Source of the DNA: Candidatus Zambryskiibacteriota bacterium
GTDB lineage: Bacteria > Patescibacteriota > Minisyncoccia > Phycocordibacterales > WO2-35-19
Length of the DNA stretch: 64,000 nucleotides
Direction: 5' to 3'
NCBI GenBank assembly: GCA_048499675.1
Contig: JASNZL010000009.1
Location: 303 to 64,302 of the forward strand
Below are positions 10,646-49,791 of the stretch, one piece after another (the first letter of the stretch is position 1; every line of letters starts with the position of its first letter). The position numbers were made by a program, and so were the translations under genes. The notes beneath the pieces are model-generated. The model saw nothing but the letters and a program-made list of their open reading frames with translations. It had not been told where the DNA came from and ran no database searches.

Positions 10646-10677
10646 AAAATACCCACTAATTACTAATATTCACCTGC

Positions 10678-13985: not shown

Positions 13986-14037
13986 ATTGGTGAGTAACTT
14001 TACAAACTTTCTAACTTGCGCCTTTCTAACTTTCTTA

Positions 14038-14541: not shown

Positions 14542-14879
14542 ATATAAAAGTAATAACTATATTCTACATTGATTTTTTACGATTTGCATTTTATCTAACT
14601 TTGTATAACCCTAACTCTCTACATCTAAAACCTCTCACCTCCAAGCTCCAACCTTCTTTCTTCCCATTTAGAATAATTAGGTTAATTAGTATAATTCTAT
14701 TATCTTCCCTCCCACCTCTGCCCCCAATCCTTTAAATCATATGTCTTATTTCTTACTTCTTATCTCTTTCGAGCTTGCATTATCCCCCAAACTATATTAT
14801 ACTTTTTTCAAGTCAATACTTTTTGACTTTTTCGTTTTTACTTTATAAACTTTACACTTTATAACTTTTAACTAATTTT

Positions 14880-19918: not shown

Positions 19919-20134
19919 CTAATAAATACAACATAGTCACCTCTTTCTTTGTTGTGCGGGTAGGGGTAATCGAACCTTCAACTTTTTGTTCGTCGTCACT
20001 CACAAAAGTTTAGGCACCAACTCGCCTGTTTTTGTTGGTACAAAAACATGGCTCCGTTGGTTTCGATCACCCCGCAAAGCAGAGCAGTCTGCTTTGCTCT
20101 ACCACGCACAACATAGTCACTTCGTTCCTTGATG

Positions 20135-20205
20135 TGCGGGTAGGGGTAATCGAAACCCCGTCTCAACCTTGGGAAGGTCGCATTCTACCACTAAACTATA
20201 CCCGC
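20135..20205 (-). tRNA. tRNA-Gly (anticodon CCC), no encoded CCA
   Basis: Hand-folded cloverleaf. Acceptor stem GCGGGTA/TACCCGC. Anticodon stem CGACC/GGTTG with loop TTCCCAA. T-arm GGGGT-TTCGATT-ACCCC. Discriminator A. Confidence 0.7.
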
Positions 20206-20472
20206 ATTGTTTTTTAAATATTTTTGAATTCTTTTCTTTACATAACCTCTACCAAAACCTGTTTTTAGTTGAAGTTCTCTTTTCCTGGAATCTGTCTTAT
20301 CTAGGCATGCCTCATAGTAAACCAGTGTAATTTTATCAAACTTTTTTGTTGTTTGAACTTCCCCTAGTTTATGCTCTCTTAATCTATTAGGTAAATCACT
20401 TGTTGAGCCGATATAAAAATTGCTTTCTTTTGTTCTCAAATTTTTACAATGTAGTACGTAAGTATAAAACAT
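20194..20472 (-). CDS. small GIY-YIG (URI-domain, YhbQ/COG2827-like) nuclease. The probable start is MFYTYV, and the 3' end overlaps the first ~12 nt of tRNA-Gly.
   Basis: FYTYVLHCKN...FYIGSTSDLPNRLREH is a GIY-YIG motif. ~92 aa. The stop TAG lies inside the tRNA D-arm. Confidence 0.6.
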
Positions 20473-20618
20473 ATTATTTCTTGCCCGCCAAAAGGTTTGC
20501 AAAACCATTTTGGCGGGTCCGCCACAATGTCCGCTTTGCGGACTTTGGGCGGAGGAAGGTCGCATTCTACCACTAAACTATACCCGCAATATTATATTTT
20601 ATATAATAAAAACCTTTA

Positions 20619-22460: not shown

Positions 22461-22988
22461 TCATCTTTCAAATGAACCTGTTACCCACGCAAATTCATTT
22501 TGCCAATTTCTAGAAGGGCAACTCCACCCGGGACTTGTAGGCCACGTCCCACTTTTTGACTCCATCCGACCTATTCCCAATACATAAAAAGCACCTTTTG
22601 AAGAGTCACACCCCGCAGTCCCCGCTCCATATTTATAGTAGTAATAAGCACCACTTGTACACCCCGTAACACTTGCTGGGTCACCAGGTGTATCTATAAA
22701 CCCTTGAGTCTTAAGTGGTTGTATAAAAGTATCAGTAGAAGCGCTCCCATTAAAACCTATATCCCAACCACTGCAATCATTGTCTGTATTGTTTGGATAA
22801 GTATTGTTGTTTGCATAATAATAAAGTTCTAGAGCATTTCTTATCTGTCTAACATCAGAAAGTCTTTTTGTATCTCTTGCTTTCGCTCTTGAGTTATTAA
22901 TCGCTACCAAAACAATGGAAGAAAGCACACCGATTATAGCTATAACCACTAGAAGCTCAATTAAAGTAAATCCTTTTGAATTTTTCAT
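22461..22988 (-). CDS. type IV pilin / pseudopilin-like protein, paralog of 15220..15768
   Basis: KGFTLIELLVVIAIIGVLSSIV prepilin N-terminus. Confidence 0.7.
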   Translation of the reverse strand: MKNSKGFTLIELLVVIAIIGVLSSIVLVAINNSRAKARDTKRLSDVRQIRNALELYYYANNNTYPNNTDNDCSGWDIGFNGSASTDTFIQPLKTQGFIDTPGDPASVTGCTSGAYYYYKYGAGTAGCDSSKGAFYVLGIGRMESKSGTWPTSPGWSCPSRNWQNEFAWVTGSFER

Positions 22989-23040: not shown

Positions 23041-23455
23041 CAATAAATTTTGTCGTATTAGTTTTATTGGTTGTATTAGTTTTATTGGTCGTATTAGTTT
23101 TATTGATCGTATTAGTCCTATTGGTCGCATCCTTCTTATCCTTCTTATCCGTCCCTAGTCCCATTCGTCCAATTTTCCCTCCCCGCCCCATTCGACCTAT
23201 TCGTCCTATCTGTCTTAATTGGTCCTATCAGTCCCGTCTCCTCTTTTCTCCACTTTTTTCTTTCCTTTTTCGATTCGTCCTATCTGTCCTATTCGTCCTA
23301 TCTGTCTTATTGGTCCTATTTTCCTCCCCACCCCATTCGTCCTATCTGTCCAATTTTCCCTCCCCGCCCCATTCGACCTATTCGACCTATTCGTCCTATC
23401 TGTCTTATTAGTCCTATTTACTTTTTAAAAACCTGCTCCACCCATTACTTCGTAT
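23041..23455. repeat. degenerate 9-bp tandem repeat array 1 (YNGTCCTAT on the + strand). It begins with 4x an 18-bp unit (cgtattagttttattggt) and contains conserved internal blocks.
   Basis: Directly visible periodicity. Fills the whole intergenic gap upstream of lepA. Confidence 0.8.
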
Positions 23456-23490
23456 CCAATTTTTATGCTATATTAGCTCTAAACTCCATT

Positions 23491-25332
23491 ATGAAAAATA
23501 TCAGAAACTTTTCAATTATTGCCCACATAGACCATGGTAAGAGCACCTTGGCTGATAGAATGTTAGAAATTACAGGCACAATAGAAAAACGTAAAATGCA
23601 CGACCAAGTGCTAGACTCTATGGATTTGGAAAGAGAACGTGGTATCACCATAAAAATGCAACCTGTCCGAATGATTTACAAACCCCAAACCCAAGTTTCA
23701 GAAATTTTAAATTTTGACTTTTACATTTTAAACTTAATAGATACCCCTGGCCACATCGACTTCTCTTACGAAGTTTCAAGGGCCCTAAAAGCCGTTGAAG
23801 GTTCTATCCTTCTTGTTGACGCAACTCAAGGTGTCCAAGCCCAAACTCTCACCACACTTAATATGGCTCGGGAAGCAGGCCTCGTCATTATCCCCGTCCT
23901 TACAAAAATAGACTCCCCTCTTGCCAGAGTAGAAGAAGTCAAAGAAGAAGTTGTAAAACTTTTATCATGCGATAAAGAAGATATTCTTTTGGTATCGGGC
24001 AAAACCGGCGAAGGTGTAAAAGATTTACTCCACGAAATTGTTGAAAAAATTCCACCACCAAACAAAGAAGAAAGTTTGGAAAACAAAGAAAGTGATTTTA
24101 GCTCCTTGGTTTTTGATTTTCAATATTCTACTCATAGAGGTGTAATTGTTTTTGTTCGAGTAATGGAAGGTAAGATTAGCAAAAACTCACCACTCATTTT
24201 TAAAGTTGCCAACGAAAAATTCAACGCTATTGAAGTTGGAATATTTGCACCCGACGAAAAACCTGTAGAAAGTTTGAGTGCTGGTGAAATCGGCTACATC
24301 GTAACCGGCATAAAAGAACCGGGTATTGCATCAGTTGGAGATACTGTCAGCCACTTAAATAATACAAAAGGTCCTTTAGCTGGATATTTTTCTCCCAAAC
24401 CAGTCGTCTGGGCATCAATTTATCCAGAAAGCCAAGACGACTTCGTACCCCTCAAACAAGCGCTCGGCAAACTTAAACTTTCTGATTCTTCATATACCTA
24501 CGAAGAAGAATCTTCAGGTGCTTTGGGGCGTGGTTTTAGATGTGGTTTCTTGGGAATGCTCCACCTAGAAATTATTACCGAGAGACTCAGACGAGAATTC
24601 GATTTAGAGCTTGTAGTCACAATGCCTACAATCACATACGAAGTCACTTACAAAAATCCAAATGGTTCAAAAGGAGAAGGTAAAAAAGAAATAATTTATT
24701 CTCCCGCAAACTTTCCTGACGATGGAATAGTTGAGTGTGTTTTTGAGCCATGGGTTTCTGTTTTCATTATTACCCCCATTACTTATGTCGGTTCTCTTAT
24801 GCAACTTCTCTATGAACACGAAGCGATACTAATTGATACAACAAACTTTGGTGATGACAAATCTGAGTTAAAAATAGAAATGCCTCTCCGTGAACTAATG
24901 CGAAACTTTTTTGACAAACTAAAAAGTTTGACTTCCGGATACGCCTCTATTTCTTACGAAATACAAGGTATGCGCGAGGCAAACGTAACAAGGCTTGATA
25001 TTTTGGTTGCAGACGAAGTCCTACCTGCTTTCTCAAGAGTTGTATCAAAAAGAATAGTAGCTGAGGAAGCCGAAAATGCTGTAGAAAAACTTGCAGAGAT
25101 AATACCTAGACAAATGTTTGCAATGAAAATACAAGGCAAAGCACTTGGTAGAATTATTTCTTCAAAAGCTATTAGCGCATTTAGAAAAGATGTCACCCAA
25201 CATATGTATGGGGGCGACATTACCAGAAAAATGAAGCTTAGAGAAAAACAAAAGAAAGGCAAGAAAAAAATGCAGGCCCGAGGAAAAGTTAATATTCCTC
25301 ACGAAGTATTCCTAAAGATGATGAAAAACTAA
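23491..25332 (+). CDS. lepA: elongation factor 4 (LepA)
   Basis: NIRNFSIIAHIDHGKSTLADR G-domain. LepA-specific C-terminal domain. Confidence 0.9.
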   Translation: MKNIRNFSIIAHIDHGKSTLADRMLEITGTIEKRKMHDQVLDSMDLERERGITIKMQPVRMIYKPQTQVSEILNFDFYILNLIDTPGHIDFSYEVSRALKAVEGSILLVDATQGVQAQTLTTLNMAREAGLVIIPVLTKIDSPLARVEEVKEEVVKLLSCDKEDILLVSGKTGEGVKDLLHEIVEKIPPPNKEESLENKESDFSSLVFDFQYSTHRGVIVFVRVMEGKISKNSPLIFKVANEKFNAIEVGIFAPDEKPVESLSAGEIGYIVTGIKEPGIASVGDTVSHLNNTKGPLAGYFSPKPVVWASIYPESQDDFVPLKQALGKLKLSDSSYTYEEESSGALGRGFRCGFLGMLHLEIITERLRREFDLELVVTMPTITYEVTYKNPNGSKGEGKKEIIYSPANFPDDGIVECVFEPWVSVFIITPITYVGSLMQLLYEHEAILIDTTNFGDDKSELKIEMPLRELMRNFFDKLKSLTSGYASISYEIQGMREANVTRLDILVADEVLPAFSRVVSKRIVAEEAENAVEKLAEIIPRQMFAMKIQGKALGRIISSKAISAFRKDVTQHMYGGDITRKMKLREKQKKGKKKMQARGKVNIPHEVFLKMMKN

Positions 25333-25334
25333 AA

Positions 25335-25690
25335 CTTTTCTATCTATCCTACTTCTTCTGTCTCATCCCCCTTTTCTTAATTCGTCGCATCCATCTTATT
25401 TTCCTTCCCCTTCCGTCAAATTCGACTTATCCGTCCTATTTGTCCCATTAGCCCTATGCGTCCAATTCTTTTTTTATTCGTCCCATTAGTCCCATCCGTC
25501 CTATTTGTCCTATTAGTCCTATTTCCCTCCCCGCCCTATCAGTCCTATTCGACTTATCCGTCCGATTCCCTCTCTCTTTTTCTTTCCTTTTTCGATTCGT
25601 CCCATCCGTCCCCTATCCGTCCCACTAGTCTTATTAGTCCTATTCGACTTATTTGTCCTATTTCCCCACCATCTCCCTGCTCTCCAAAAT
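25335..25690. repeat. 9-bp tandem repeat array 2 (same family and orientation)
   Basis: ccgtcctat/tagtcctat units plus conserved blocks tatttccctccccgccc and ctctctttttctttcctttttcgattcgtcc. Confidence 0.8.
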
Positions 25691-27292
25691 TTTAAAAACA
25701 AAAGCGGTCGCTAAAATCCCTATCGTTCCAGCAATAAACCCGTGTCCCAATACACCCCAAAAAGTCTCAAGTGTAAAATAGTCAGAAAATACCAAAAGAC
25801 CCAAATAAACTCCAACCCCACAACCCAAAGCTCCAACCAAACTTTCAACAATAGTTCGCCTTATAGAAATCCAAATATCAAATACTAGTTCTCTACCAAG
25901 ACCAAAGAAAAGCAAAAGGGCGCTAAAAATACTCCCCAAAGAAAAAGCAAAAGGCAAAGATAGAATTTTTAAAGACAAATCAGGCACTTTTAAAATATCA
26001 GCAACTAAAGCAAAAAAGACTCTAAAATCCTCAAAATATTTATAAAACAAAACTGCAAACAAAACCGATACTACACCACCTAAAATGTTTCCGTAAAATG
26101 GCCATTTAGTTCTGCCAAGTGCATAGTGCGAACGAGACAAAAACAAAACTATACTTTGAAAAACGATTGAAAGAGCAAAAATAGCAAGCGACGCAGAGAC
26201 AAGCCTAGTAGAAAGCCAATCAAAAGACCCAGAACCCAAAACAACTCTGGTAATGTGAGCTCGCAAAAGTATTATAAAAACTGTAAAAGGGAGGGACCAA
26301 AAAATGATTTGCCTTAATCCGTGAGAAATCTTTTCTATTACACCAACCATATCTTTTTTTGCATAAGATAGTGCAAGAGCCGGAAAAGCCGCCAAAGAAA
26401 AACTAACACCAATAAGAGAAATTGGAGCCGATTGCAAATTCCAAGACAGATTAAATATCGCAATAGAACCAGTTTCCATTCTAGAAGCAAGAACAGCAAA
26501 GAAAAAACCAACAAAACTTGTAATAGAAAGGGCAAGTGTTCGTGGAACCGACAATTTTCCTACTTCTAACACATCTTCCCATTTAATTCTTTTAATAAAT
26601 CTCGGCCTGAGTTTTGACCGCATTACAAAAATTGCCTGAAGCAAGAGATGCATAAAAGCTCCGAGTATCACTCCAAAAACCGCTGAGGAAATACCTATTT
26701 TTTCGCTCAAAGCAAAAATTCCAATGATAATACCAAGGTTATAAAGTATCGGACTTATTGAATACAAAATAAATCTTTTTTCATACTGGACTATACTGCC
26801 AAAAAAATTAGAAAAACCTAAAAGAAGCGGCGATAAAAGTAAAACTCTTGATAAGAGAATTATTTCATTAATCGTATTTAGAGAAAGGGTAGAATAAAAA
26901 AAGTTAACTATAATCGGCATCAAAAAATATGCGAGTCCACAAAACAAAACAATAAGAACCGAAAAGATACTAAACACCGAATCGGTTGCATCCTTCAAAT
27001 GTTTTTCACCTTCCGTTTCTTTTTTTGCAAACAAGGGCACCAAGGCAGAGATAGAAACCAAAGAAGCAACAGTCACAAAAATCAAATCCGGTACTTTAAA
27101 AGAGGCATAATATATATCAAGCTCAAGTCCTGCACCAAAATTATGAGCGAGCATCCTATCGCGAAGGAGTGCCAAAATAAGTGAAAAGAAAGAAAAAAGA
27201 GCTAGCCAAAATGCCGCCTCTCCTACTCCGTTAATTTTTAGCGCTATAGAGTTTACTATCCTCTTTACCATTATTAATAAAAAATAGCACAA
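25658..27292 (-). CDS. murJ: lipid II flippase MurJ (MviN). The true start is possibly the internal MVKRIV.
   Basis: About 14 TM helices. N-terminal motif RDRMLAHNFGAGLELDIYYASFKVPDLIF matches the MurJ family. Confidence 0.65.
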   Translation of the reverse strand: MCYFLLIMVKRIVNSIALKINGVGEAAFWLALFSFFSLILALLRDRMLAHNFGAGLELDIYYASFKVPDLIFVTVASLVSISALVPLFAKKETEGEKHLKDATDSVFSIFSVLIVLFCGLAYFLMPIIVNFFYSTLSLNTINEIILLSRVLLLSPLLLGFSNFFGSIVQYEKRFILYSISPILYNLGIIIGIFALSEKIGISSAVFGVILGAFMHLLLQAIFVMRSKLRPRFIKRIKWEDVLEVGKLSVPRTLALSITSFVGFFFAVLASRMETGSIAIFNLSWNLQSAPISLIGVSFSLAAFPALALSYAKKDMVGVIEKISHGLRQIIFWSLPFTVFIILLRAHITRVVLGSGSFDWLSTRLVSASLAIFALSIVFQSIVLFLSRSHYALGRTKWPFYGNILGGVVSVLFAVLFYKYFEDFRVFFALVADILKVPDLSLKILSLPFAFSLGSIFSALLLFFGLGRELVFDIWISIRRTIVESLVGALGCGVGVYLGLLVFSDYFTLETFWGVLGHGFIAGTIGILATAFVFKILESREMVGK

Positions 27293-27299
27293 AAAACCT

Positions 27300-27850
27300 T
27301 TTTTTAAAACGCAAAACTCACTTCCCTAGTTCCATTATCCAATCTTCCTTCTACTTTTTTCTTCTTTTTTCCCTATCCAACTTATTTTCCTTCCCCTTCC
27401 GTCAAATTCGACCTGTCTTATTTCCCTCCTCCGCCTTATTCGTCCTATTAGTCCTATCCGTCCTATTAGTCCCATCCGTCCGATTCCCTCTCTCTTTTTC
27501 TTTCCTTTTTCGATTCGTCCCATCCGTCCCATCCGTCCTATCTGTCTTATTTCCCTCCTCTGCCTTATTTGTCCTATCCGTCCTATTCGACCTATAAGTC
27601 CTATTTGTCCTATTAGTCCTATTTCCCTCCCCGCCCTATCAGTCCTATTCGACTTATCCGTCCGATTCCCTCTCTCTTTTTCTTTCCCTTTTTAATTTGT
27701 CCCACCGTCCTATTAGTCCTATCCGTCCTATCCGTCCTATCTGTCTTTTTTGTCCTATTTCCCTCCTCTGCCTTATTTGTCCTATCCGTCCTATTCGTCC
27801 TATCCGTCCTATCCGACCTATTGGTCCTATTTCCCTCCGCTTTCTTCGTC
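27300..27850. repeat. 9-bp tandem repeat array 3
   Basis: Longest array. Several copies of the conserved blocks. Its 3' part overlaps the acidic C-terminus of the 27827..28489 gene. Confidence 0.8.
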
Positions 27851-28489
27851 CCCTTTTCCTTCTTCGTCATCTTCAATTGGAACCACCCTACCGTCTATCA
27901 ACCTCTTACGACCGTTCTCTTTTAAAATCCTAGCGTACACCTCATCATCATTCCCAAAAATCTGCTCCTTTTTCACCTCCCTCTTCCTATCATTAAAATC
28001 CCCATTCACCTTAAACTCTTCCTCCAAAACTTTTATCTGATTATCAAGCAAATAATTGGTTTGATTAATAAGACAAAGCAAACAATTCCCAGCAATTTCT
28101 GGATGCTTCATATAAGCCGAGTATGTTTTACTCGTCTTTTCGGGCAATCTCGCAATCTCCCTAATCTCAATCGTTCGAGGATCGTCCTTCTTCCAAATTG
28201 AGAGGTTGTTTACTCTCAAATAATCCAAAATGTCGTTTTTTAATTCCTCCTGACTACCTCTGGCAACATTCAAAAGCCTAATCTCGGTTTGTTTTGAGGT
28301 AGCCGAATTTAAACTACCTTCGCTTATGTTTTGTTTGCCCGCTCTCGCCGCCCCCTCCATCTGTTCTTTCATTTTAAACGATTTGACGTAAAGTTTGCAA
28401 AATTCAAAAGTTAAATCAAAAACTATTTCGGCGCTCTGAAAAGATTTGAGTTTGTTGTAGCCACCATGTTTTGCAATTAAATCAGTCAT
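27827..28489 (-). CDS. four-helix-bundle protein (23S rRNA IVS protein / Avd-like family) with ~90-aa acidic C-terminal extension
   Basis: KSFQSAEIVFDLTFEFCKLYV...NISEGSLNSATSKQTEIRLLNVARGSQEELKNDI matches the TIGR02436/PF05635 pattern. Confidence 0.5.
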   Translation of the reverse strand: MTDLIAKHGGYNKLKSFQSAEIVFDLTFEFCKLYVKSFKMKEQMEGAARAGKQNISEGSLNSATSKQTEIRLLNVARGSQEELKNDILDYLRVNNLSIWKKDDPRTIEIREIARLPEKTSKTYSAYMKHPEIAGNCLLCLINQTNYLLDNQIKVLEEEFKVNGDFNDRKREVKKEQIFGNDDEVYARILKENGRKRLIDGRVVPIEDDEEGKGDEESGGK

Positions 28490-28539
28490 TTTTTTAATTT
28501 AATTTTTAATTTTAATTCTAATTTTATTCTAATTCAAAT

Positions 28540-28960
28540 TGTAATTCTAATTTTATTTTTAATTCGTCCCATCCGTCCTATCCGTCCTATTCATTTTTTA
28601 TTTGCCCTATCCGACCTATAAGTCCTATTTCCCTCCTCTGCCTTATTTGTCCTATCCGTCCTATTCGACTTATCCGTCCTATCAGTCCTATTCGACTTAT
28701 CCGTCCGATTCCCTCTCTCTTTTTCTTTCCTTTTTCGATTCGTCCTATCCGTCCTATTAGTCCTATCCGTCCTATTTCCCTCCTCTGCCTTATTTGCCCT
28801 ATCCGTCCTATTCGACTTATCCGTCCAATTCTCTCTCTTTTTCTTTCCCTTTTTAATTTGTCCTATCTGTCCAATTTTTTTATTTACCCTATCCAACCTA
28901 TAAGTCCTATCTGTCTTATTTGCTCCATCCGACTTATTGGTCCTATCAGTCCTATTTCCC
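28540..28960. repeat. 9-bp tandem repeat array 4
   Basis: Same units and blocks. Preceded by an AATTCTAATTTT AT-rich repeat at 28495-28560. Confidence 0.8.
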
Positions 28961-30991
28961 AATTAGATACAACTGCTTCACCTCCTCCGCCGACAACGCT
29001 CGATTATAAATCCGCACGTCGTCAATCGAGCCGTTAAAAAATCTATTTAACCCATTCCATTCAGAACCAATAGCTAAATTATTTGCATTAACTGTAATAT
29101 TACCAGTTGCAGAAATAAATTTATCTAACTGTCCATCAATATATATACTGAAACCTGTTTGGTCTATCGTGCACAAAATATGATACCACCTGTTAGTTTC
29201 AAGAGTGGCACCAGAACTATGATATCCTGCTGGACTTTTACCATATGCAAAAACTTCAATTTTCCCTGTTGGTACAATTGTTAAATAATATGTACCTTTA
29301 ATTATTACTCCCCTTCTATCCGCACCAGCCCAGGAATTTCCCTTTACCCAAGCGGACATAGTAATTTTTGTAACATCCAAATTGTCGCTATCATTTATTA
29401 TTACGTATTGATTTGTTCCATCAAACTCCAACGCCTGACCTATCTTACCAATAGTTGGTTTTGCACCAGTGATCGTTCCATTGTTCCCCTGCCCGCTCCT
29501 ATCATAAGCAGTCGTGCCCGAAATATCCTTACCATCAAAACTCCACAACCCAACCAAACCATCAGTCATTTTATTATTTTGGGAAGAGTTTATGGTCGCA
29601 CTACTCTGTTCATAAAGTTTTTGTATTTCTCCGGCTGATAAAGCTCGGTTGTAGATACGAACATCGTCTATTAGTCCGTTATAAGAGTAATCGCTATTAT
29701 GATAGTCTCTGCCAATTTTACCAAAAGTGGATATATTAACAGTTATCTGACCAGAATTTATAGGGCTATAAGCAACACCGTCAATGAATATTGTTACTGT
29801 CCCAGCATTGTAATCATACACGCCGGATACAAAATGCCATTTCCCGTCATTTACGTTCGCATTAACAAAAGCTTCATAAGCTGATGAGCCGTTACCAACC
29901 CATAAACCCACACGGTTAATATTTTTATATGTCATCAATTTTACTCCGTATAGATAGGTATTGTCTGTTGCCAAAACCGTTTGATGAGGTTTCCCAGTCG
30001 GTGGCCCGTTAGATTTCATCCATGCCGAAATAGTTTGAGAGCCTGTCAGTCCTGAATTTATTAAATTCACATCAACATAACTATTAATTCCATCAAAACT
30101 TAAAGCCTTCCCTCTCTTTCCATCCGTCCAAGTGGCGCCAATGATGGTCCCATTATTCCCATTCCCACTACTGTCTCCCGCAACTGTTCCAGCTCCTTCA
30201 TCAAACGACCAATACCCAACAAGTCCTTGATTAGAAACTGTTTTCCTTGTCGCTTGCCCGCTTGAATAAAGCCTTGCAATCTCTCCAGATGACAGCGCTC
30301 GATTATAAATCCGCACGTCGTCCAAAAATCCATCCAGTCTAAACGAATGAGTACCGAAAGTTAAATTTGCATTATTCGAAATAGATCCACTTCGACTTGA
30401 TATATTCACCGTATGCTTTAGAGTTCCATTTATGTAAAACTCCGCATCAGAACTCCTTCTATAATTCACCGTAACAAAATTCCACTCATTGTTCCCAACA
30501 TAAGTATTACCTGATGTGGTATTACAAGCAACATTACTAGAGACATCTTGGAAATGAGTACAAACTTCACCATTAAACATTCTGACAACAAAACCAGTGG
30601 TTACTGACCCATTACTACCATATTTATTAATTATACCAACATTACTTCTTGAATCATTTGTTTTGATCCAAAACGAAACTGAAAAATCTTGCGTCCCAAA
30701 GTTAAAAGAGTCTTTATTCCCAGCATTTACATACCCACTACTTCCATCAAGTTTTAATGCCTTCCCCCTTTTTCCATCTGTCCATTCTACACCTCCAACG
30801 AGTGTGCCATTATTCCCATTCCCGCTACTATCCCCCGCAACTGTTCCAACCCCTTCGTCAAAATTCCAATACCCTACCAAACCAAGGTTTGATGGGGGGC
30901 GCGCCAAAACCGCAGCAGTCGCTGTACGCGGAGTTGGTAAAGCTATAAACAGCAAACTAAATATGATTATTTTGATGAGAGCTTGTTGCAT
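28952..30991 (-). CDS. secreted protein with four LamG / concanavalin-A-like lectin domains (Laminin_G_3 type)
   Basis: Signal peptide. Fourfold repeat of the diagnostic motif (L/I)DDVRIYNRALS..EI..LY. Confidence 0.65.
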   Translation of the reverse strand: MQQALIKIIIFSLLFIALPTPRTATAAVLARPPSNLGLVGYWNFDEGVGTVAGDSSGNGNNGTLVGGVEWTDGKRGKALKLDGSSGYVNAGNKDSFNFGTQDFSVSFWIKTNDSRSNVGIINKYGSNGSVTTGFVVRMFNGEVCTHFQDVSSNVACNTTSGNTYVGNNEWNFVTVNYRRSSDAEFYINGTLKHTVNISSRSGSISNNANLTFGTHSFRLDGFLDDVRIYNRALSSGEIARLYSSGQATRKTVSNQGLVGYWSFDEGAGTVAGDSSGNGNNGTIIGATWTDGKRGKALSFDGINSYVDVNLINSGLTGSQTISAWMKSNGPPTGKPHQTVLATDNTYLYGVKLMTYKNINRVGLWVGNGSSAYEAFVNANVNDGKWHFVSGVYDYNAGTVTIFIDGVAYSPINSGQITVNISTFGKIGRDYHNSDYSYNGLIDDVRIYNRALSAGEIQKLYEQSSATINSSQNNKMTDGLVGLWSFDGKDISGTTAYDRSGQGNNGTITGAKPTIGKIGQALEFDGTNQYVIINDSDNLDVTKITMSAWVKGNSWAGADRRGVIIKGTYYLTIVPTGKIEVFAYGKSPAGYHSSGATLETNRWYHILCTIDQTGFSIYIDGQLDKFISATGNITVNANNLAIGSEWNGLNRFFNGSIDDVRIYNRALSAEEVKQLYLIGK

Positions 30992-31171
30992 CGTAATTAA
31001 CCTAATTATACTAATTAACCTAAATAAATCCTAAACCCTAATTAGAAATTAAAAATTCAGTAAAAATTTTTCCCTATACTTCTGCATAAGTTCAGAAACA
31101 TATGAGACTCTGATTTTTGATTTTATATGTCTTTTTATCTTAAATCTTAAATCTAATTTATTAACACACTC

Positions 31172-31702
31172 CTAAAACGAAAAACTCTCCACAAACATCT
31201 TAAGCAACTCCTCTTCTCCTTCCTCGCAAGTTACTTGATACAAAACTCCTTCCTGAATAAACCAAACATCCCAAACTCTTCCCATTGTCTCGTGTTCTGA
31301 AGCAAAACTCACAGCAGAAATTTTTGCCTTTGGTAATTCTATATCCAAAAGTGATTCTATTTTTTCACCCGCCAAATCTCTCCTTACAGTATTTGAATCA
31401 ACTTTTACACTAGTATCAACTTCCGAAATATAGACTTGCATTCCCTTTCCTTCCCTCAAAACCAAAATACCCTCACCAAATCCATCTTCTACAATAGATA
31501 GGGTGTGAGAACTTGGATAATCAAAACTAAAACCAAGTGTTGAATGGACAAATACCAACATCTCGGTTTTGCCATAAACCCCTTTTGTATCTATATCCAA
31601 AATATCACCAAGACTTCTAGGACCTTTTTCACCACCACTAAAGTAAATTATTATTAGAATAACAATCACCACAAACAGTCCTGTGTAAATCACCTTTTTC
31701 AT
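31172..31702 (-). CDS. membrane-anchored/lipoprotein-like small protein, unknown function
   Basis: N-terminal TM/signal segment. 176 aa. Confidence 0.35.
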   Translation of the reverse strand: MKKVIYTGLFVVIVILIIIYFSGGEKGPRSLGDILDIDTKGVYGKTEMLVFVHSTLGFSFDYPSSHTLSIVEDGFGEGILVLREGKGMQVYISEVDTSVKVDSNTVRRDLAGEKIESLLDIELPKAKISAVSFASEHETMGRVWDVWFIQEGVLYQVTCEEGEEELLKMFVESFSF

Positions 31703-31744
31703 ACTTTTGTTAATTTCTTTTTTATCTCTTTAACTTTACCGTTT

Positions 31745-32230
31745 CAACTCTCCCCTTTTATTTTATCTTGCCCCAATTCGTCCTATTTGTTTATCCACCC
31801 CATCTTCCTTTTTCCTTATCTGTCCTATTTGTCCTATGAGCCCCATCCGTCCTATTTCCCCTCTCTTTCCTCATCGGTCTTATACGTCCTATTTCCCTTC
31901 TCTGCCTTATTCGTCCTATTAGTCTTATTGGTACTATTTCCCTCCCCGCCCGCCATTCGTCCTATAAGTCCTATTTCCTCTCTCTTTTTCTTTCCCTTTT
32001 TAATTTGTCCTATCCGTCCGATTAGTCTTATTAGTCCTATTCGTCCTATTCGACCTATCGGTCCTATTTCCCTTTTATACGTCCTATTTGTCCTATCCGT
32101 CCGATTAGTCTTATTAGTCCTATTCGTCCTATTCGACCTATCGGTCCCATTTCCCTTTTATACGTCCTATTTGTCCTATCCGTCCAATAAGTCCTATTTC
32201 CCGCCCCCCTTCCTTCCTCTTACAACAAAC
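31745..32230. repeat. 9-bp tandem repeat array 5
   Basis: Contains an internal ~90-bp duplication (32030-32110 and 32111-32190). Confidence 0.8.
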
Positions 32231-32290
32231 CCATCCATTACCTCATAGTGATAATAGATGGGTTTTAATATCATATCCTTACCAAAAGCA

Positions 32291-34618
32291 CTACTCCTCT
32301 AACGGAAGTTCTGATCTTGATTGCGGATCCACATCAATTGGAGGAGTTGCTCCAGTAAAAGGATCTCTACCCGCCCTCAAATTATCAAGAATAAGAGAAA
32401 TTTCTTCACTGTCTGGATTTGTTGTAAGCACAGTTTCAAACACTGCAATTGCTTCAGCATCTCTACCCAGTTTATCGTAAGACAAACCTAAGAAATATTT
32501 TGCGTTGGCAAAATCTGGAACTAAAACAATTGCTCTCTCAAAAGCTTGGGAAGCTCCCAAAAAATCATCCCTATTATATTTTAGAAGACCCAATTGAAAG
32601 AATAGTCCAGAATTTGACGGGTCGACAATAGTTGCAGACTCTACAGACCTAATCGCGCCTTCTATATTATTTGTAGCCACCTCTATTTGAGCCAAAGTAA
32701 AATATGCATCGCTATAATTATTTTTCATTCGGAGAGCTTCAGCAATGTAATTTTTTGCTCCTTCCAAATCATTCTCTAGTGCACTAATTCTAGAAAATGC
32801 CAAAGGAATTGCTGGGTTATTTGGCGCTCTGTTCAATGCTTCTGCGTAAGCGCTCTTTGCATTCTCCAAGGAACCCTCTATTCCACTACCACCCAAAATC
32901 TCATACACTCTTCCCAGCGCAAACCAGTTTTGAAAATCCTTATTGTTCCAATTAATAGCCTCTCTTGCTGAAAGGATGGCATCTGATATTGCGCCCTGTA
33001 TTTCGTTTCTATCTGCCTCAGAAAGTTGCTCTGGATTAGATGCCCTACTTGCTATCTCAGAAATTCTTGCAACAGACAGTTCAGCCACACCTCTCCAGTA
33101 AACATCATTTTGAGTCAAATTAATCGCGCCTAACGCATTACCCTTCTGGAACATAGAAGTAGCGACCACCCTCTCCCACACAAAATATCCTCCGGCAATC
33201 GAAGAAATGAGAAGCACCACGATTACAAAAACCGAAGCAAAATTTGCTTTTGGATTTCTGAATATATTGAATTCCATATTTTCTGCAATTCCCTGCGCCA
33301 CCAAAGTCCCCGCAAAAATACCTGTAAAGATAAATGCCAAAGCCAAAAGCGCGATACTAGGAACATAAACAAACGCCATCACCCAAATAAAGAGGGATAT
33401 AAAGAACGTTGTAGTAGAGACAAATCTATTTCTCGAATCAGAACTTGAAGAAAATATTGCTTTATACCCCGAAAGAATATACAAGCCAAAGAAAAACAAA
33501 ATTGACAATATACCCAGCAGACCGATAGTTGAGAATAAAGTAAACACAAAACTAGAACCAAAGGCAAATTCAGAAGCCCAAAACTGCGTTAAGTTTATAT
33601 CAACCGGTCTTTGCAAATCCCACAACTCTTTAAACATATTAGGACCAACACCAAACACAGGATTTACCGAGAGAGAGTCACCAACAAGACTTAAGGTGGT
33701 TAGAGTATTTGGTCTAACTTCTACCATATTAACATTAAAAATATTAGACAAATATCCAGACAAAGCCCCCCCAGAGAGAATAAACACTACAGAAAGAATC
33801 AAAACGAAGAGTGAAGGAAATGATGCTTTTTGTGTTCCCTGAGTTCCTGACTGTGAAATATTATTCTGTGACCCAACTGACCAAGCAAAAGTGTAAACAA
33901 AATATATTAGAGAAAATAAACCAATTACAACAATTGCTGGCATAAATCCAGAAGCTCCAATAAACAAAACAGCAAAAGCAAGGACTACATACATTAGATA
34001 TTTTGTTCTATTGCTCAACGTAAATGTGTTTAGAATTGATAGGAGAGCAATCACAACAACACCCAAAAATATTGTGGTATCTATCATGCCACCAACCAAA
34101 AAATTAGGGATTCTCATACCAAAACTTTCTGGCAGTGACCCTGCAAAAATTCTAAGTAAAAGGTGGAGTATAACTACAACCGAAGACAACAGAAGCGCAT
34201 ATATTGATTTAATACCAATCCGCGCTTCTCCTCTTGACGCAAATATTGCGATGAAGAACAGGAGCGATAGTATAAAGAGTGAACCAGAAGTTCCTAAATC
34301 AAAGACTACACCCGCAACAGATTTTGATATTGCACCCGAGAAAAAAGAAGATATTAGAGCAAAAAGTGGCAACAGAGCAACTGGGATTAGAAACTTTGAT
34401 TTAGGAAAAGATATTTTCCCAGTTGAAAGAGTATTCCCCAAAAATGCCCCCAGAAACACAACGATTATAGTTGCCAAAAAAGCAACTTTGACAGAATACA
34501 AAGACAAAAAGAAGCTAGGTATAAATATAAGAGGAGTTAAGAAAACTAATAATAAGAGACAGTATTCAAAGATTTTTCCAAAATCAAACTTTGAATGCAT
34601 TTGAGTATTTTCTTCCAT
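32291..34618 (-). CDS. polytopic membrane protein (O-antigen-ligase/Wzy-like N-terminal domain) fused to C-terminal TPR repeats
   Basis: At least 12 TM helices over the first 450 aa. The C-terminus carries about 6 TPR-like repeats (AYAEALNRAPNN..., AKYFLGLSYDKLGRDAEAIAVFE). Confidence 0.5.
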   Translation of the reverse strand: MEENTQMHSKFDFGKIFEYCLLLLVFLTPLIFIPSFFLSLYSVKVAFLATIIVVFLGAFLGNTLSTGKISFPKSKFLIPVALLPLFALISSFFSGAISKSVAGVVFDLGTSGSLFILSLLFFIAIFASRGEARIGIKSIYALLLSSVVVILHLLLRIFAGSLPESFGMRIPNFLVGGMIDTTIFLGVVVIALLSILNTFTLSNRTKYLMYVVLAFAVLFIGASGFMPAIVVIGLFSLIYFVYTFAWSVGSQNNISQSGTQGTQKASFPSLFVLILSVVFILSGGALSGYLSNIFNVNMVEVRPNTLTTLSLVGDSLSVNPVFGVGPNMFKELWDLQRPVDINLTQFWASEFAFGSSFVFTLFSTIGLLGILSILFFFGLYILSGYKAIFSSSSDSRNRFVSTTTFFISLFIWVMAFVYVPSIALLALAFIFTGIFAGTLVAQGIAENMEFNIFRNPKANFASVFVIVVLLISSIAGGYFVWERVVATSMFQKGNALGAINLTQNDVYWRGVAELSVARISEIASRASNPEQLSEADRNEIQGAISDAILSAREAINWNNKDFQNWFALGRVYEILGGSGIEGSLENAKSAYAEALNRAPNNPAIPLAFSRISALENDLEGAKNYIAEALRMKNNYSDAYFTLAQIEVATNNIEGAIRSVESATIVDPSNSGLFFQLGLLKYNRDDFLGASQAFERAIVLVPDFANAKYFLGLSYDKLGRDAEAIAVFETVLTTNPDSEEISLILDNLRAGRDPFTGATPPIDVDPQSRSELPLEE

Positions 34619-34772
34619 TTTTTATAAATTATTAATATTAATTCCTGTTATTATTATATCACTATTTGTATATTTATTTATCAAGTTTTCCACACATATT
34701 TACGCTTACATAATAATAAGTATTTTCATATTTATGCTAGAATTAAATTAAGATTAAAACTAAAATATATAT

Positions 34773-35288
34773 ATGAATGAAATAAGATTCAGCCAACAAA
34801 ACAAGTCTCCAGAGATACAGACGGGACCCAAAGACAGCCTGTCACAAAAAGAAAATGTTCCAACCAAAAAAAGAGGCTTTTGGGTTATGTTAAAAAAAAT
34901 ATTTTTTACTCTATTTTTTATTTTAGTTATTTTACTCATTATCTTTTTTGCTAGAGACATTACAGTTAAATTATTAACAAAAGAACCAAACAATTATTCT
35001 GCAGTATTTCTTTCAAACAATCAGGTATATTTCGGTATAATGATAAAAAATTCAAAAGACGAACTTGTTTTAAAGAATGTTTTTTATGTTCAAGCAAATG
35101 AAAGTAATGACGGTGCAGGTACCCCCATCCAAAGTATTAACCAACCAAGATTTAATTTAGTAAAACTCGGCAATGAAATTCATGGGCCAACCGACAGTAT
35201 GCATATAAACAAATCTCACATAATGTTCTACGAAGACTTAAGAGAAGACAGTGTAGTGGTCCAAGCAATTAGAAACTACAAAGAATAA
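34773..35288 (+). CDS. membrane-anchored hypothetical protein
   Basis: TM helix at residues 40-60. 171 aa. Confidence 0.35.
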   Translation: MNEIRFSQQNKSPEIQTGPKDSLSQKENVPTKKRGFWVMLKKIFFTLFFILVILLIIFFARDITVKLLTKEPNNYSAVFLSNNQVYFGIMIKNSKDELVLKNVFYVQANESNDGAGTPIQSINQPRFNLVKLGNEIHGPTDSMHINKSHIMFYEDLREDSVVVQAIRNYKE

Positions 35289-35289
35289 A

Positions 35290-35460
35290 ACTTATTAGTT
35301 CCATTCGTCTTTATTTGTCCTATTTTCTCTTTTCCTTCCTCCTATTTCACTTTTCTGTTTCTTAATCAGACCTATTCCCCCTTTTTTCATCCGTCTTATT
35401 CGTCCAATAAGTCCTATTTTTTGCTCGTCCTATTGGTCCATTTAGTCCTATTACCTTATC
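35290..35460. repeat. 9-bp tandem repeat array 6 (short, degenerate)
   Basis: gtcctat/gtcttat units, same orientation. Confidence 0.65.
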
Positions 35461-37798
35461 TGAATTTCACTCCCCCTCTCACATTCACCGGCTTCGCCGG
35501 CGCACCTCCACTACCTGTCTCCCTATTCAAAGACTCAAGCCCCCCATATCCATAAAACGAACTCGGACTATTTTGGTTGTTGTATTCAGTCATCACCCAG
35601 TCACTACTTCTAACTCCTGCATACACCCTCATATTATCTATCCTTCCATTAAAAGTTCTTGCACCTCCAGTTCTATTCCCAATAAAAGCTGTATCAGGAG
35701 CATCAGAAACAATTGCCGTCACCCCATCCGTACCAGATGAATAAGCCGCCTCTACTCCATCAACATATATTTTTAATCCTGTGGCGCTCAGCGAACCATC
35801 CCACGTACCCACAACATAAGCCCACGAATTTCTAGTATAAATATCATTAACTGTTTCTCTAACAGGACGCCCAGCAGACCCAGATGAGTTAAAACCAAAA
35901 CCTATTCTATTTTGTGGATTTGGGTTATCTACAGTCAATATTCTTGGACCATCTGAGCTTCCTGATGGTGTTTTGCTGTAAATAAAGCCGAAACCATTTT
36001 GTCCAGCCCCAACAACATATATCCAAGAACTCATTGTTTGTGATCCAACGTCATCCAACGAAGAAGCAGAGCCGACATTAATTGAAGAAGTGCTTCCATT
36101 AAACGAACCCGCTCCATCAATTTTACCTGCAACAGCAGTAACATTAGAAGCAGTGCCATTATTAGCATTTGATGTAGAATCATTAGAATTTAAAGTCGTC
36201 CCATCTTTTAAATGCCAAGCTCCTCTATAACCCGTCCATACATTTGCAATATCTTGCTGGTCACTCGCCCCCGAATTCCCGAAGTACATATATATAGGTG
36301 TCTCCGAATTGTATGAAAGAGTCGGTATCTTCACCCAAGCAACTAGCTCTCCTGTAGAAGATACATATCTTTCAATCTCGTGACTTAGTTTGGTTGTCCC
36401 ATCACTTGAGGTAAATAATATATCTGTCCCGTCTGTCTTGCCCACCTTTCCACCACTTCCAGTGTGTCTCAAATCGCTGTCTGTGACAGATACGAGCATT
36501 GGGAAATCTGTTAGGTTTGATGAGCCAGAGACTTTGGTATTGTCTACGGTGATTAGTTTTCGGTGAGTCCATGTGCCTCCGGTCGAGTACCAACCATAAC
36601 TTATGTCTTTATTCCTCACTAAAACATTTGGGACAGTGTCAATTGGAGGCTCTTCCTCAGAAGAAAAAGTATAAAAAGTACTTGGACTATTCATATTGTT
36701 ATATTCAGTCGCTATCCAATCAGCTCCTAAAACATTTGTAGACAATCTCACTTCGTCTATTCCATCATCCCAAGGGTTTGTGGTTGCATTTGTCCTATCA
36801 CCAATTGCAAAATTGTTTGTGTTAGTTGGAATAGCGCTAGTAAAAGCACAAGTGCCAGCTTGTGAACCATCTGTATACAATCTAATATTAGAACCATCAT
36901 AAGTAACTGAAAATTGAGTCCATTTATTATGCATAAAATTTAAACCACCAACTCCTCCATAAACAGAACAACTGGCACCAGTAGTAAAACTCGTTTGAAT
37001 CAATTGTGAAGCGTGGTTAACAATTAAACCATACGTCCAAATAGATGAAGTTTTTCCTAATATATTACCAGAGTTTGTTCCTCCATCATCATATACCCAA
37101 GCTTGCATCGTTATACTATAACCTCCAATACTCAACGCTGCTTCGTGGTTTCTATATAGCCTGTCATCTGTTCCATCAAAATCTATAGCTCCAGCAATCT
37201 TGCCAGCAATCAAATCTCCCGTTGTCATAGAACCATTACTTGTAAGATGTAGAGCATTCGGTCCAGAATCAAGCATTTGAGGTGCAGAGCCAGAAGGGTC
37301 TTGGTTTAAGTGCCACACCCCAACATAATTACTCCAGACAGAGGTAATGTTCTGCTGATCACTCGCTCCCGAATTACCATAATAAATATATATCTCAGTA
37401 TCGGTGTTGTATGAGAGTGTTGGTATCTTCACCCAAGCAACTAGCTCTCCTGTGGTTGATACATATCTTTCAATCTCGTGACTTAGTTTGGTTGTCCCAT
37501 CACTTGAGGTAAATAATATATCTGTCCCGTCTGTCTTGCCCACCTTTCCACCACTTCCAGTGTGTCTCAAATCGCTGTCTGTGACAGATACGAGCATTGG
37601 GAAATCAGTCAGGTTTGATGAGCCAGAGACTTTGGTATTGTCTACGGTGATTAGTTTTCTGTTTGTCCAAGTGCCTCCGGTCGAGTACCAAGCACCCTCA
37701 GCCTCTCTCGTACTAAACAAATCCGTAAACACAATAACCGAAAGCAAAGTTCCCAGAAGTATCGTGATTATTATTATTTTTTTAAAATTTCTTTTCAT
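35456..37798 (-). CDS. secreted protein with two tandem DUF2341 + LamG-like modules
   Basis: Signal peptide. WYSTGGTWT.RKLITVDNTKVSGSSNLTDFPMLV (DUF2341-like) occurs twice. C-terminal DEVRLS..ADWIATEYNNMNSPSTFY LamG-type motifs. The two modules share ~280 bp of near-identical DNA. Confidence 0.5.
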   Translation of the reverse strand: MKRNFKKIIIITILLGTLLSVIVFTDLFSTREAEGAWYSTGGTWTNRKLITVDNTKVSGSSNLTDFPMLVSVTDSDLRHTGSGGKVGKTDGTDILFTSSDGTTKLSHEIERYVSTTGELVAWVKIPTLSYNTDTEIYIYYGNSGASDQQNITSVWSNYVGVWHLNQDPSGSAPQMLDSGPNALHLTSNGSMTTGDLIAGKIAGAIDFDGTDDRLYRNHEAALSIGGYSITMQAWVYDDGGTNSGNILGKTSSIWTYGLIVNHASQLIQTSFTTGASCSVYGGVGGLNFMHNKWTQFSVTYDGSNIRLYTDGSQAGTCAFTSAIPTNTNNFAIGDRTNATTNPWDDGIDEVRLSTNVLGADWIATEYNNMNSPSTFYTFSSEEEPPIDTVPNVLVRNKDISYGWYSTGGTWTHRKLITVDNTKVSGSSNLTDFPMLVSVTDSDLRHTGSGGKVGKTDGTDILFTSSDGTTKLSHEIERYVSSTGELVAWVKIPTLSYNSETPIYMYFGNSGASDQQDIANVWTGYRGAWHLKDGTTLNSNDSTSNANNGTASNVTAVAGKIDGAGSFNGSTSSINVGSASSLDDVGSQTMSSWIYVVGAGQNGFGFIYSKTPSGSSDGPRILTVDNPNPQNRIGFGFNSSGSAGRPVRETVNDIYTRNSWAYVVGTWDGSLSATGLKIYVDGVEAAYSSGTDGVTAIVSDAPDTAFIGNRTGGARTFNGRIDNMRVYAGVRSSDWVMTEYNNQNSPSSFYGYGGLESLNRETGSGGAPAKPVNVRGGVKFR

Positions 37799-37799
37799 T

Positions 37800-37985
37800 T
37801 TCTTTTTTTAATTGACCCTTTCTGACTTATACGTCCTACTTGGTCTTATTCGTCTTATTGGTCCTATTTGACCTATCCGACTTATTCGACCCATCGGACC
37901 CATTCGTCTTATTGGTCCTATTTGACCTATCCGACTTATTCGACCCATCGGACCCATTCGTCCTATCGGTCCTATGGATTTTCTG
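37800..37985. repeat. 9-bp tandem repeat array 7, including 2x a 54-bp unit
   Basis: tcgtcttattggtcctatttgacctatccgacttattcgacccatcggacccat appears twice. Confidence 0.75.
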
Positions 37986-42879: not shown

Positions 42880-42939
42880 CTATCTGCTTTTTTGTTTTTT
42901 ATGTTTTGTTTTAAACTTTTACCCACTAATTACTGTTGA

Positions 42940-49720: not shown

Positions 49721-49791
49721 GAGGGTTTGATACTTATCCACACCCCAAAACACATCCCCCCATTAACCTGATATTATTAAATTATCAAAAT

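Follow-up and report, generated by a model that had tools for sequence, protein, structure and literature searches.

A nonamer satellite in a Patescibacteria genome is associated with a four-helix-bundle suffix gene family across bacterial phyla

A 64,000-nt stretch of a Candidatus Zambryskiibacteriota (Patescibacteria) genome (contig JASNZL010000009.1, positions 303 to 64,302, forward strand; hereafter the window) has nine intergenic gaps in the interval from 23.0 to 38.0 kb, seven of which are filled by non-coding arrays of a degenerate unit of 9 bp. On the + strand the unit reads GTCCTATNN and on the − (gene-sense) strand ATAGGACNN, with two positions variable; we also write the repeat as (AUAGGACNN)n and its five-unit RNA version as (AUAGGACGA)5. 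Across the loci compared here, this nonamer satellite was tightly associated with one gene family in different phyla, and among close relatives of the window the presence or absence of arrays tracked the same gene. The family member in the window (27827..28489, − strand) encodes a four-helix-bundle (4HB) suffix protein. An earlier reading of the region from its letters and open reading frames (ORFs), here called the sequence-only reading, had listed this gene, as Avd-like, merely as a neighbour of the arrays; judged from the comparisons below, the repeat is tied to it. We put at about even the chance that the arrays are the cis-repeat half, and the 4HB-suffix gene the other half, of a two-part module whose protein would bind the repeats.

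Association of the repeat with one gene family

Homologue loci were chosen solely by protein similarity and contig size, not by the repeat. In every Patescibacteria lineage taken, five beyond that of the window, nonamer arrays of the form ATA(A/G)G(A/T)CNN abutted both ends of the gene, on both flanks of proteins with 88% (L249), 69% (L250), 59% (L251/252), 59% (L253/254) and 55% (L257-259) identity to the window gene. Upstream arrays at the homologue loci start at the stop codon of a giant gene or a LamG gene, and matches to the nonamer are almost confined to the two flanks of the gene and its linker. Locus L249 also has the A- and B-type blocks that are embedded in the window arrays (see below), and its gene finishes GGGK* at the same TAG. 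Copy number varies next to the same product: L257 and L259 encode an identical protein and carry 8 and 13 downstream units, respectively.

The association was also recovered from the repeat side. When every ORF of the loci collected by the repeat was searched with a hidden Markov model (HMM) of the family, three members emerged, each bracketed by arrays: one in Gemmataceae (L097, 2.6e-77), which ends at the first-unit TAG and has complementary flanks, one in Acidobacteriota (L048, 3.6e-35) and one in Planctomycetota (L086, 1.9e-24).

The four-helix-bundle suffix protein

The protein matched Pfam PF05635 at E 7e-7, with a score under the gathering threshold, and TIGR02436 at 27.8 bits (cutoff 24); homologues from L251 and L097 exceeded the cutoff of the suffix domain TIGR04258, and relatives carry the source name 'four helix bundle suffix protein'. 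From an alignment of 37 sequences, AlphaFold2 gave a confident model (pLDDT 86.5) that was nearly all helical, with pLDDT >90 in the long helices. The closest matches by both sequence profile and fold were the PF05635 structures 2GSC and 2RLD, with five chains in each deposit, and on this modelling the 4HB-suffix protein is probably pentameric. Pentameric Avd-type bundles (bAvd) bind nucleic acid. PADLOC and PHROGs gave no match for the protein, and no viral relative was found. The family is large, with at least 8000 relatives at E<1e-10 in one search. We know of no role for PF05635/TIGR02436/TIGR04258 proteins other than that of Avd in diversity-generating retroelements (DGRs).

The repeat also reaches into the gene. 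Across the family, the linker joining the two domains is encoded by three to five in-frame nonamer units specifying (K/R)(S/T)Y, and the window linker (KTS KTY SAY MKH; 28109..28141, − strand) is a degenerate version of these units, likewise in frame. A genome of 62% GC keeps the linker peptide but spells it with other codons (TAC for TAT), which argues for protein-level selection on the linker and for nucleotide-level constraint on the flanking arrays. In several homologues, translated arrays extend the N or C terminus (MTYMTYMTY, MGPMGLMRPM, ...NRTDRSHRTN). Proteins of the L097 type are 80–92% identical over 120 clusters, including ones named Planctomycetales, Kapabacteria and Caldilinea, and many are on contigs of 1–2 kb; this identity across clusters, together with the short contigs, points to horizontal spread and to repeat-bounded copies.

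Nonamer arrays in the window

The + strand has 81 copies of the core 7-mer GTCCTAT and the − strand a single one; all of them lie inside 23–38 kb, and none was found elsewhere in the 64-kb window. A three-unit pattern matched 13 times in the window and not once in 100 shuffles. Autocorrelation had maxima at lags 9, 18, 27 and 36 in six arrays and was weak in array 6. Tandem Repeats Finder returned period-9/18 arrays at 23052-23418, 25475-25662, 27437-27831, 28565-28957, 31817-32198, 35383-35452 and 37828-37975. The seven arrays of the sequence-only reading were thereby confirmed, but its statement that nearly every gap is filled was too broad, as the gaps at 30992-31171 and 34619-34772 have no array. 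Its claim of a single orientation whatever the gene direction agrees with the 81:1 count, but only two + strand genes stood behind the second part of that claim. The window has ~35% GC and a GC skew that is negative all along, and most of its genes are on the − strand; the six − strand genes with an array downstream all have it in mRNA sense.

Array starts coincide with, or supply, the stop codon of the upstream − strand gene (genes were assigned with Pfam; all arrays are given in their − strand orientation). Array 1 (23045..23420) occupies the divergent gap between a pilin-like gene (22461-22988, −) and lepA (23491-25332, +); its left part is a degenerate 18-bp repeat in four copies, and copies of the A-type block and of block B lie inside it. 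Array 2 (25377..25668) lies between the convergent genes lepA and murJ (25658-27292, −) and provides the terminal codons and the TAG stop of murJ (...VGK*). Array 3 (27384..27860), 3′ of the 4HB-suffix gene and upstream of murJ, consists of sub-arrays of 4–6 units with blocks A and B in between. Array 4 (28555..28962) separates the 4HB-suffix gene from a triple-LamG gene (LamG1, 28952-30991, −), to which it provides the terminal codons and TAG stop (...IGK*). Array 5 (31775..32215) lies 3′ of a TPR gene (32291-34618, −). Array 6 (35289..35455) is short and degenerate, with ~8 units, and starts immediately 3′ of the TAA of a LamG/DUF2341 gene (LamG2, 35456-37798, −; TAATAGGAC, that is, TAA and then TAGGAC). 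The first-unit TAG of array 7 (37812..37975) is the stop codon of a 1635-aa ORF (37972-42879, −).

Three of these genes, murJ, the PF05635-like 4HB-suffix gene and LamG1, finish ...GK* at the TAG of GGGAAATAGGAC, which for the 4HB-suffix gene is the edge of array 3. The sequence-only reading had attributed the acidic C-terminal tail of this gene to array 3; the array does supply the last ~12 codons and the stop, but the acidic PIE(D/E) part belongs to the family itself.

Higher-order repeats were found by Tandem Repeats Finder as 18 bp x4.2 (89%), 83 bp x2.4 in array 5 (96%) and 54 bp x2.4 in array 7 (97%), in line with the duplications described earlier, of which the second had been put at ~90 bp. 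The shared embedded blocks were likewise borne out. Block B (representative 27482..27520, − strand, GGACGAATCGAAAAAGGAAAGAAAAAGAGAGAGGGAATC; 36 nt, or four unit lengths) is purine-only on the gene-sense strand and has seven copies (23255, 25577, 27495, 27677, 28720, 28838 and 31985). Block A (representative 27548..27565, − strand, AAGGCAGAGGAGGGAAATA; 18 nt, or two unit lengths) has 5–9 copies of its type in the window. As the blocks are multiples of 9 nt and keep the register, they resemble diverged units amplified along with the others, as in the higher-order repeats of satellites. Inter-array segments of 113–193 nt are 85–92% identical among arrays 2, 3 and 4: arrays 2 and 3 have a common 130-nt segment (92% identical), and arrays 4 and 3 a common 193-nt segment (85% identical).

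The arrays were non-coding, as had been proposed. The unit by its make-up leaves two − strand frames free of stops (Gly-X-Ile and Arg-Thr-Asn/Asp), both of which are interrupted by frame changes; the third has a TAG once per unit. These frame changes and the recurrent TAG indicate that the arrays are not an intact gene. Gene-sense array RNA folds weakly (−49.5 kcal/mol for 421 nt), and antisense array RNA folded no better than shuffles. Consensus promoter and terminator scans gave no enrichment, and Rfam over the window returned one tRNA only, leaving the arrays uncovered.

Other gaps of this lineage hold different T/C-rich short tandem repeats of period 6–9 (TTTTAA x12, TAACTTTC, TATTTCT, ACTCTTA and TTCGTAT). 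They occur at 28492-28564, 13995-14039, 14740-14768, 42932-43007 and 57628-57664, and also in gaps of the related genome L242; all of them are purine-rich on the gene-sense strand.

Near relatives and independent assemblies

By its lepA neighbours, the window organism falls within Patescibacteria (Paceibacteria/Zambryskibacteria-like). In the nearest different genome (L242; lepA 91% identical, ~80–83% nucleotide identity over syntenic genes) there was no nonamer at all. Its lepA and murJ overlap by 4 bp, compared with a 333-bp gap with array 2 in the window, and its murJ and TPR genes are 176 bp apart, compared with 5.1 kb in the window. The 5.1-kb segment comprises array 3, the PF05635-like gene, array 4, LamG1, a 176-aa ORF and array 5. 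L242 likewise has neither the pilin gene nor array 1, and it is without the LamG2 segment that arrays 6 and 7 enclose in the window. The more distant relatives L245/246 and L247 are array-free and have their LamG, giant, TPR, murJ and lepA genes in one compact cluster, in that order. Over the syntenic relatives that lack the gene (L242, L245/246 and L247), two-unit matches numbered zero in 53 kb of non-redundant sequence, a total that counts the L245 locus once because L246 duplicates it. The absence of arrays from these relatives, together with the 85–92% identical segments, indicates on sequence comparison that the satellite was amplified recently in the window lineage and copied between gaps. 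The sequence-only reading had named absence from orthologous sites in relatives, combined with loss of the consensus, as evidence that would tell against it; the nearest relative does lack arrays at those sites, but the consensus has been kept wherever the gene is present.

The same arrays are present, at the same places, in two independent Logan assemblies, L001 (SRR27710300; ~99% identical to the window) and L248 (SRR21762701; encoding an identical 4HB-suffix protein), with identical array positions and junctions. An assembly artefact, the concern raised by the sequence-only reading, can be set aside with near certainty. It would account for the breaking of short-read contigs within arrays, where the contigs of L001 and L248 both terminate, but the NCBI contig and both Logan runs agree on arrays and junctions, and homologous arrays occur in ENA, JGI and NCBI assemblies of other lineages, including long-read metagenome-assembled genomes (MAGs) and isolates.

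Nonamer arrays in other phyla

Searched with a 2.4-unit pattern, a set of genomes, one per species, gave at least 120 loci. Among the matches listed were Acidobacteriota, Planctomycetota, Verrucomicrobiota, Lentisphaerota, Chlamydiota, Myxococcota/Deltaproteobacteria, Hydrogenedentota, Chlorobiota, Bacteroidota, Chloroflexota and Patescibacteria, and the isolates Oligosphaera ethanolica, Chlorobaculum sp. 24CR and a Streptomyces. Single MAGs of Thermoanaerobaculia (Acidobacteriota) had dozens of array loci each. Most viral contigs that matched, and a few cellular loci, were collagen-like Gly-Pro-Ile ORFs.

In these genomes too, and on the positions of their predicted genes, arrays generally lay 3′ of stop codons in mRNA sense. 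Among the matches listed, 72 arrays within 60 nt 3′ of a gene end supported by GC content at third codon positions (GC3) were in mRNA sense and 11 antisense; 56 arrays were in convergent and 16 in divergent gaps, and the TAG of a unit was the stop codon in 14 cases. Arrays of the listed high-GC genomes were commonly inverted pairs. As sense arrays stand at convergent ends, most such 'hairpins' are two genes, each with its own sense array. The 7-nt core was the same at 35% GC and at ≥60% GC (up to 70% GC in Acidobacteriota), which argues for a constraint at the level of nucleic acid.

Block-bearing arrays of the window type are known only from this lineage and L249. Metagenome scans found block B nowhere, and block A together with one unit matched twice, at chance level; one of these two matches proved on inspection to be unrelated. 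A BLAST search of array 3 against plasmids and phages also gave no match, possibly owing to the low-complexity filter.

Several of the collected loci had features of their own. Patescibacteria locus L037 (1603-1650) has an in-frame nonamer insertion coding IGPIGPIGQIGP in a gene read as rpoB from its sequence. In Parachlamydiaceae locus L044 (6500-7000), nonamer and GGAC-rich arrays flank a ~350-bp palindrome that contains two inverted Acido-Lenti-1 (RF01687) matches (43.8 and 35.9 bits); a similar hairpin in L057 (7800-7986) was read by eye only. An Acidobacteria MAG (L095, 1700-2300) has a ~150-bp higher-order repeat of ~4 copies, each unit of which is a nonamer hairpin plus a second hairpin. 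Heptamer tandem arrays of assorted units, usually as inverted pairs (for example, GAAGAGG x4.7 beside CCTCTTC x4), were seen in L012, L018, L029, L064, L094, L097, L105, L111 and L117; tandem-repeat hairpins thus seem to be a general feature of those genomes.

Interpretation and rival explanations

A module of repeat plus protein is more likely than random junk. In its usual form, the module would consist of short ATAGGACNN arrays on both flanks of the gene plus the in-frame units of the linker. It may have spread horizontally between phyla, some genomes now having scattered solo arrays of 4–5 units at the 3′ side of ordinary genes, just past the stop codon. In the window lineage it would have arrived between murJ and the TPR gene, along with a LamG surface-protein gene. 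The repeat would then have acted as a minisatellite, growing by replication slippage or unequal exchange into higher-order repeats, being copied segmentally into neighbouring gaps with constant orientation, and overwriting the last codons of several genes, which would now end at an in-frame unit TAG. The arrays would act as nucleic acid and not as coding sequence, read most likely on the purine-rich, essentially unstructured gene-sense strand, and the oligomeric (probably pentameric) 4HB-suffix protein would bind them as a series of sites, about one 9-nt unit to each subunit. That gene and repeat move horizontally as one module we infer from the comparison of loci; binding of the repeat by the 4HB-suffix protein is proposed by analogy with the pentameric Avd-type bundles, and the strand or molecule that it would read and any benefit are likewise putative. 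The roles put forward by the sequence-only reading (a protein-binding array, a recombination substrate or a satellite) are all live options.

Several results weigh against the module. The match of the window protein to the suffix domain TIGR04258 (38.9 bits, 36/49 profile positions) is under the cutoff of 40, and no nucleic-acid-binding or catalytic domain was recognised in it. Outside Patescibacteria, one of two loci chosen by protein had a weak array, three units upstream (L255), and the other a degenerate trace only (L256); within Patescibacteria, the downstream array of L257 and L259 is antisense. The genes beside arrays in other phyla were ordinary housekeeping genes with no enriched family, by all-against-all clustering and a Pfam census, so that a trans factor is an assumption. 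The size of the arrays listed, mostly from high-GC genomes, has a mode of 4–5 units that was partly shaped by the search pattern; with the 4–6-unit sub-arrays of array 3, it would fit one unit per subunit.

The chief rival is a selfish or neutral minisatellite without a trans factor, born from the (K/R)(S/T)Y linker or the flanks and hitch-hiking with the gene, which we regard as possible though doubtful. It would have spread by slippage, template switching and ectopic recombination, and its post-stop position and TAG would reflect mere tolerance. The unit common to linker and flanks suits this explanation, as do the higher-order repeats, inter-array copying and copy-number variation, which are typical satellite conduct, the lack of arrays in the nearest relative, and the heptamer arrays of other units in the same genomes. 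A period that is a multiple of three would also allow invasion of ORFs without frameshift, as in rpoB of L037 and the C-terminal tails. A neutral repeat should drift, however, and the AT-rich 7-nt core is unchanged at 60–70% GC and across phyla; the 72:11 orientation bias among the matches listed is not expected from tolerance alone, given that antisense arrays are stop-free in all frames and nevertheless lie outside ORFs, and dozens of unlinked loci in one genome would require a dispersal mechanism. Position and strand could instead be explained by an unlikely alternative, a 3′-end RNA or transcription element independent of the 4HB gene that serves as terminator, insulator or stabiliser after the stop codon. 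Sense arrays of convergent gene pairs would form a hairpin, the C-rich, G-poor antisense strand would load Rho and block antisense or read-through transcription, and the sense strand would present read-through ribosomes with Shine-Dalgarno-like AGGA, rare codons or TAG. Sense arrays do abut stop codons, the listed matches favour convergent over divergent gaps (56 vs 16), the order in Streptomyces locus L118 is stop, array, terminator hairpin, the array-filled gaps of the window have no intrinsic-terminator-like sites, and + strand RNA is pyrimidine-rich and unstructured. But the window arrays are unpaired (81:1), so that no hairpin is possible, the array of L103 lies between two terminators and outside both transcripts, and array 1 is in a divergent promoter gap. 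Such an element would also leave unexplained both the bracketing of the 4HB-suffix gene and its unit-bearing linker.

Two further explanations are considerably weaker. In one, double-stranded DNA sites would serve another protein (nucleoid, partition or regulatory) or act as recombination sites that shuffle surface-gene cassettes. The stretches in which the window and L242 differ (pilin, the 4HB+LamG cassette and LamG2) do have arrays at their borders, and contiguous direct or inverted short repeats resemble ribbon-helix-helix operator or centromere arrays. Such arrays on plasmids are contiguous short repeats, both direct and inverted. There is, however, no candidate protein and no family enriched near arrays, and orientation tracks transcription rather than symmetry, which makes these sites improbable. 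In the other, still more remote, the arrays would be decayed or cryptic coding sequence, a remnant of a surface protein or of the 4HB tail in a collagen-like Gly-X-Ile (GGA CNN ATA) or an R-T-(N/D/Y) frame. Two of three − strand frames are open and array 4 contains a 123-codon ORF; the variable positions correspond to the third base of ACN and the first base of NAT, and viral and some cellular matches are genuine collagen-like genes. Set against this, indels break the frames and the third frame stops in every unit; the third positions of GGA and ATA are invariant whereas the second codon position varies; high-GC non-coding arrays retain ATA/AGG whereas the coding linker switches to TAC; and arrays begin 3′ of stop codons.

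Relation to known systems

Full-text literature searches on the repeat strings, on 9-bp or nonamer repeats in these phyla and on the names of the protein family gave nothing relevant to the repeat or its link to the gene, in agreement with the sequence-only reading, which had recognised no described repeat family in the pattern. We place the arrays with known gene-associated dispersed repeats or satellites, with a real chance that they represent a new two-component system.

A close parallel is with repetitive extragenic palindromic (REP) sequences, REPINs and their RAYT transposases: the repeat is short and intergenic, stands mostly at gene 3′ ends and often in inverted pairs, and has a dedicated gene flanked by repeats. 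The REP unit is, however, a 20–40-nt palindrome and the nonamer a 9-nt tandem repeat; the protein here is a four-helix bundle with no HUH/Y1 nuclease; and REP sequences are species-specific, whereas the nonamer core is common to several phyla. Membership in REP/REPIN was rejected, the window core being 81:1 with no inverted partners, although inverted pairs occur in other phyla. The Y1_Tnp ORF of the window (49792-50454) is not flanked by nonamers. With the intervening sequences (IVSs) of 23S rRNA genes the module has in common the protein superfamily, the bounding repeats and a sporadic, horizontally acquired look. It differs in lying outside an rRNA gene (Rfam found no rRNA in the window), in having, in Patescibacteria, direct nonamer arrays as flanks and not the single inverted pair of a processing stem, and in the additional suffix domain of its protein. 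The DGR protein Avd has the same four-helix-bundle fold and pentameric relatives, and the 4HB-suffix gene sits just 3′ of a large surface-protein gene, as avd does after the DGR target gene. No reverse transcriptase was found among window ORFs ≥150 aa or among the called genes of L250-L259, and no template repeat/variable repeat (TR/VR) pair was found; the mismatches of the internal LamG repeats (D7, D10) are spread over all bases and are not adenine-specific. On these two grounds the locus is not a DGR.

As satellites, the arrays resemble the short tandemly repeated repetitive (STRR) heptamers of cyanobacteria and other prokaryotic satellites (Leptospira, Methanocella) in occupying several intergenic sites, in higher-order structure and in copy-number change. 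They differ in period (9), unit and host (Patescibacteria, not heterocystous cyanobacteria), and the nonamer family has in addition a strand rule, a cross-phylum range and an associated gene. In a survey of prokaryotic satellites, transposed non-coding families were rare, being found only in Leptospira interrogans and Methanocella conradii among ~260 species (PMC6749651). Collagen-like Gly-X-Y coding repeats have the same string (GGT CCT ATY = Gly-Pro-Ile) and the same 9-nt period; those, however, lie in long ORFs with Gly at every third residue, whereas the window arrays are intergenic, frame-broken and post-stop.

Other candidates were discarded. A CRISPR array, already dismissed by the sequence-only reading, has 23–50 bp repeats with unique spacers, in contrast to these contiguous 9-mers without spacers, and no Cas family was found among window ORFs ≥150 aa. 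Acido-Lenti-1 RNA (RF01687) had no window match at E<=5 and stands beside nonamer arrays only in Parachlamydiaceae L044. A repeated 9-bp target-site duplication of a transposon was dropped as no transposase association was found, and resemblances to DnaA-box, KOPS-like, CsrA and Hfq motifs were dropped as weak or untestable.

It is conceivable, though we consider it doubtful, that the nonamer and its gene form an unrecognised cross-phylum two-component system in which a pentameric suffix protein would read 9-nt units and control or propagate arrays 3′ of stop codons. If so, it would follow a REP/RAYT-like logic without a known nuclease and would offer the first proposed function for the PF05635/TIGR04258 family and, by extension, for 23S-IVS proteins. 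A conserved cis partner would in any case be a testable handle on the function of PF05635/TIGR02436/TIGR04258 proteins. That the core is unchanged between Patescibacteria at 35% GC and Acidobacteriota at 70% GC, and obeys a strand rule relative to stop codons, would point to either unstudied 3′-end biology or a new selfish element. For practical purposes, the arrays break short-read assemblies of Patescibacteria, and annotators should expect spurious ORFs and altered C-termini beside them.

Other features of the window and its relatives

A 105-bp insert directly 5′ of the lepA ATG, in which the lepA start is partly duplicated and a GC hairpin is added, is present in L001 (120-224) and L242 (9896-10000), and the window is without it. 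The lepA gene of L242 (765 aa) also has a PDDEXK_3 insertion (10193-10690). Two 300-nt duplications in the window have 86–87% identity, with mismatches showing no adenine bias: 1799-2098/3156-3455, in the tandem paralogous ORFs 1824-2990 and 3181-4356, and 36207-36506/37305-37604, inside the LamG/DUF2341 gene.

GC-rich palindromic repeats of ~38–56 nt (for example, CCTGCCCGCAATGCTATCGCATACGCGTTGCAGGCGGG), some in tandem doubles, lie at 10667-10722, 13893-13977 and 60791-60884 and in L242 gaps 1391-1766 and 2271-2760; they have a REP-like look and are unrelated to the nonamers. Within 48400-50454, an AT-rich stretch (GC 0.29) contains three perfect TTATCCACA DnaA-box-like 9-mers, at 48791, at 49734 and, on the reverse strand, at ~48489. 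A 31-nt perfect palindrome (49099-49160) lies in it as well, as does a small helix-turn-helix-like ORF; GC skew does not switch there. The IS200-like Y1_Tnp ORF (49792-50454), which follows, is preceded by its own hairpin. Within 19928-20593, beside a tRNA-Gly(CCC) gene (20134-20205), duplicated tRNA-3′-like segments (19928-19974/20108-20154 and 20172-20211/20554-20593) enclose a GIY-YIG ORF (20191-20565), which looks like an endonuclease element inserted beside this tRNA gene.

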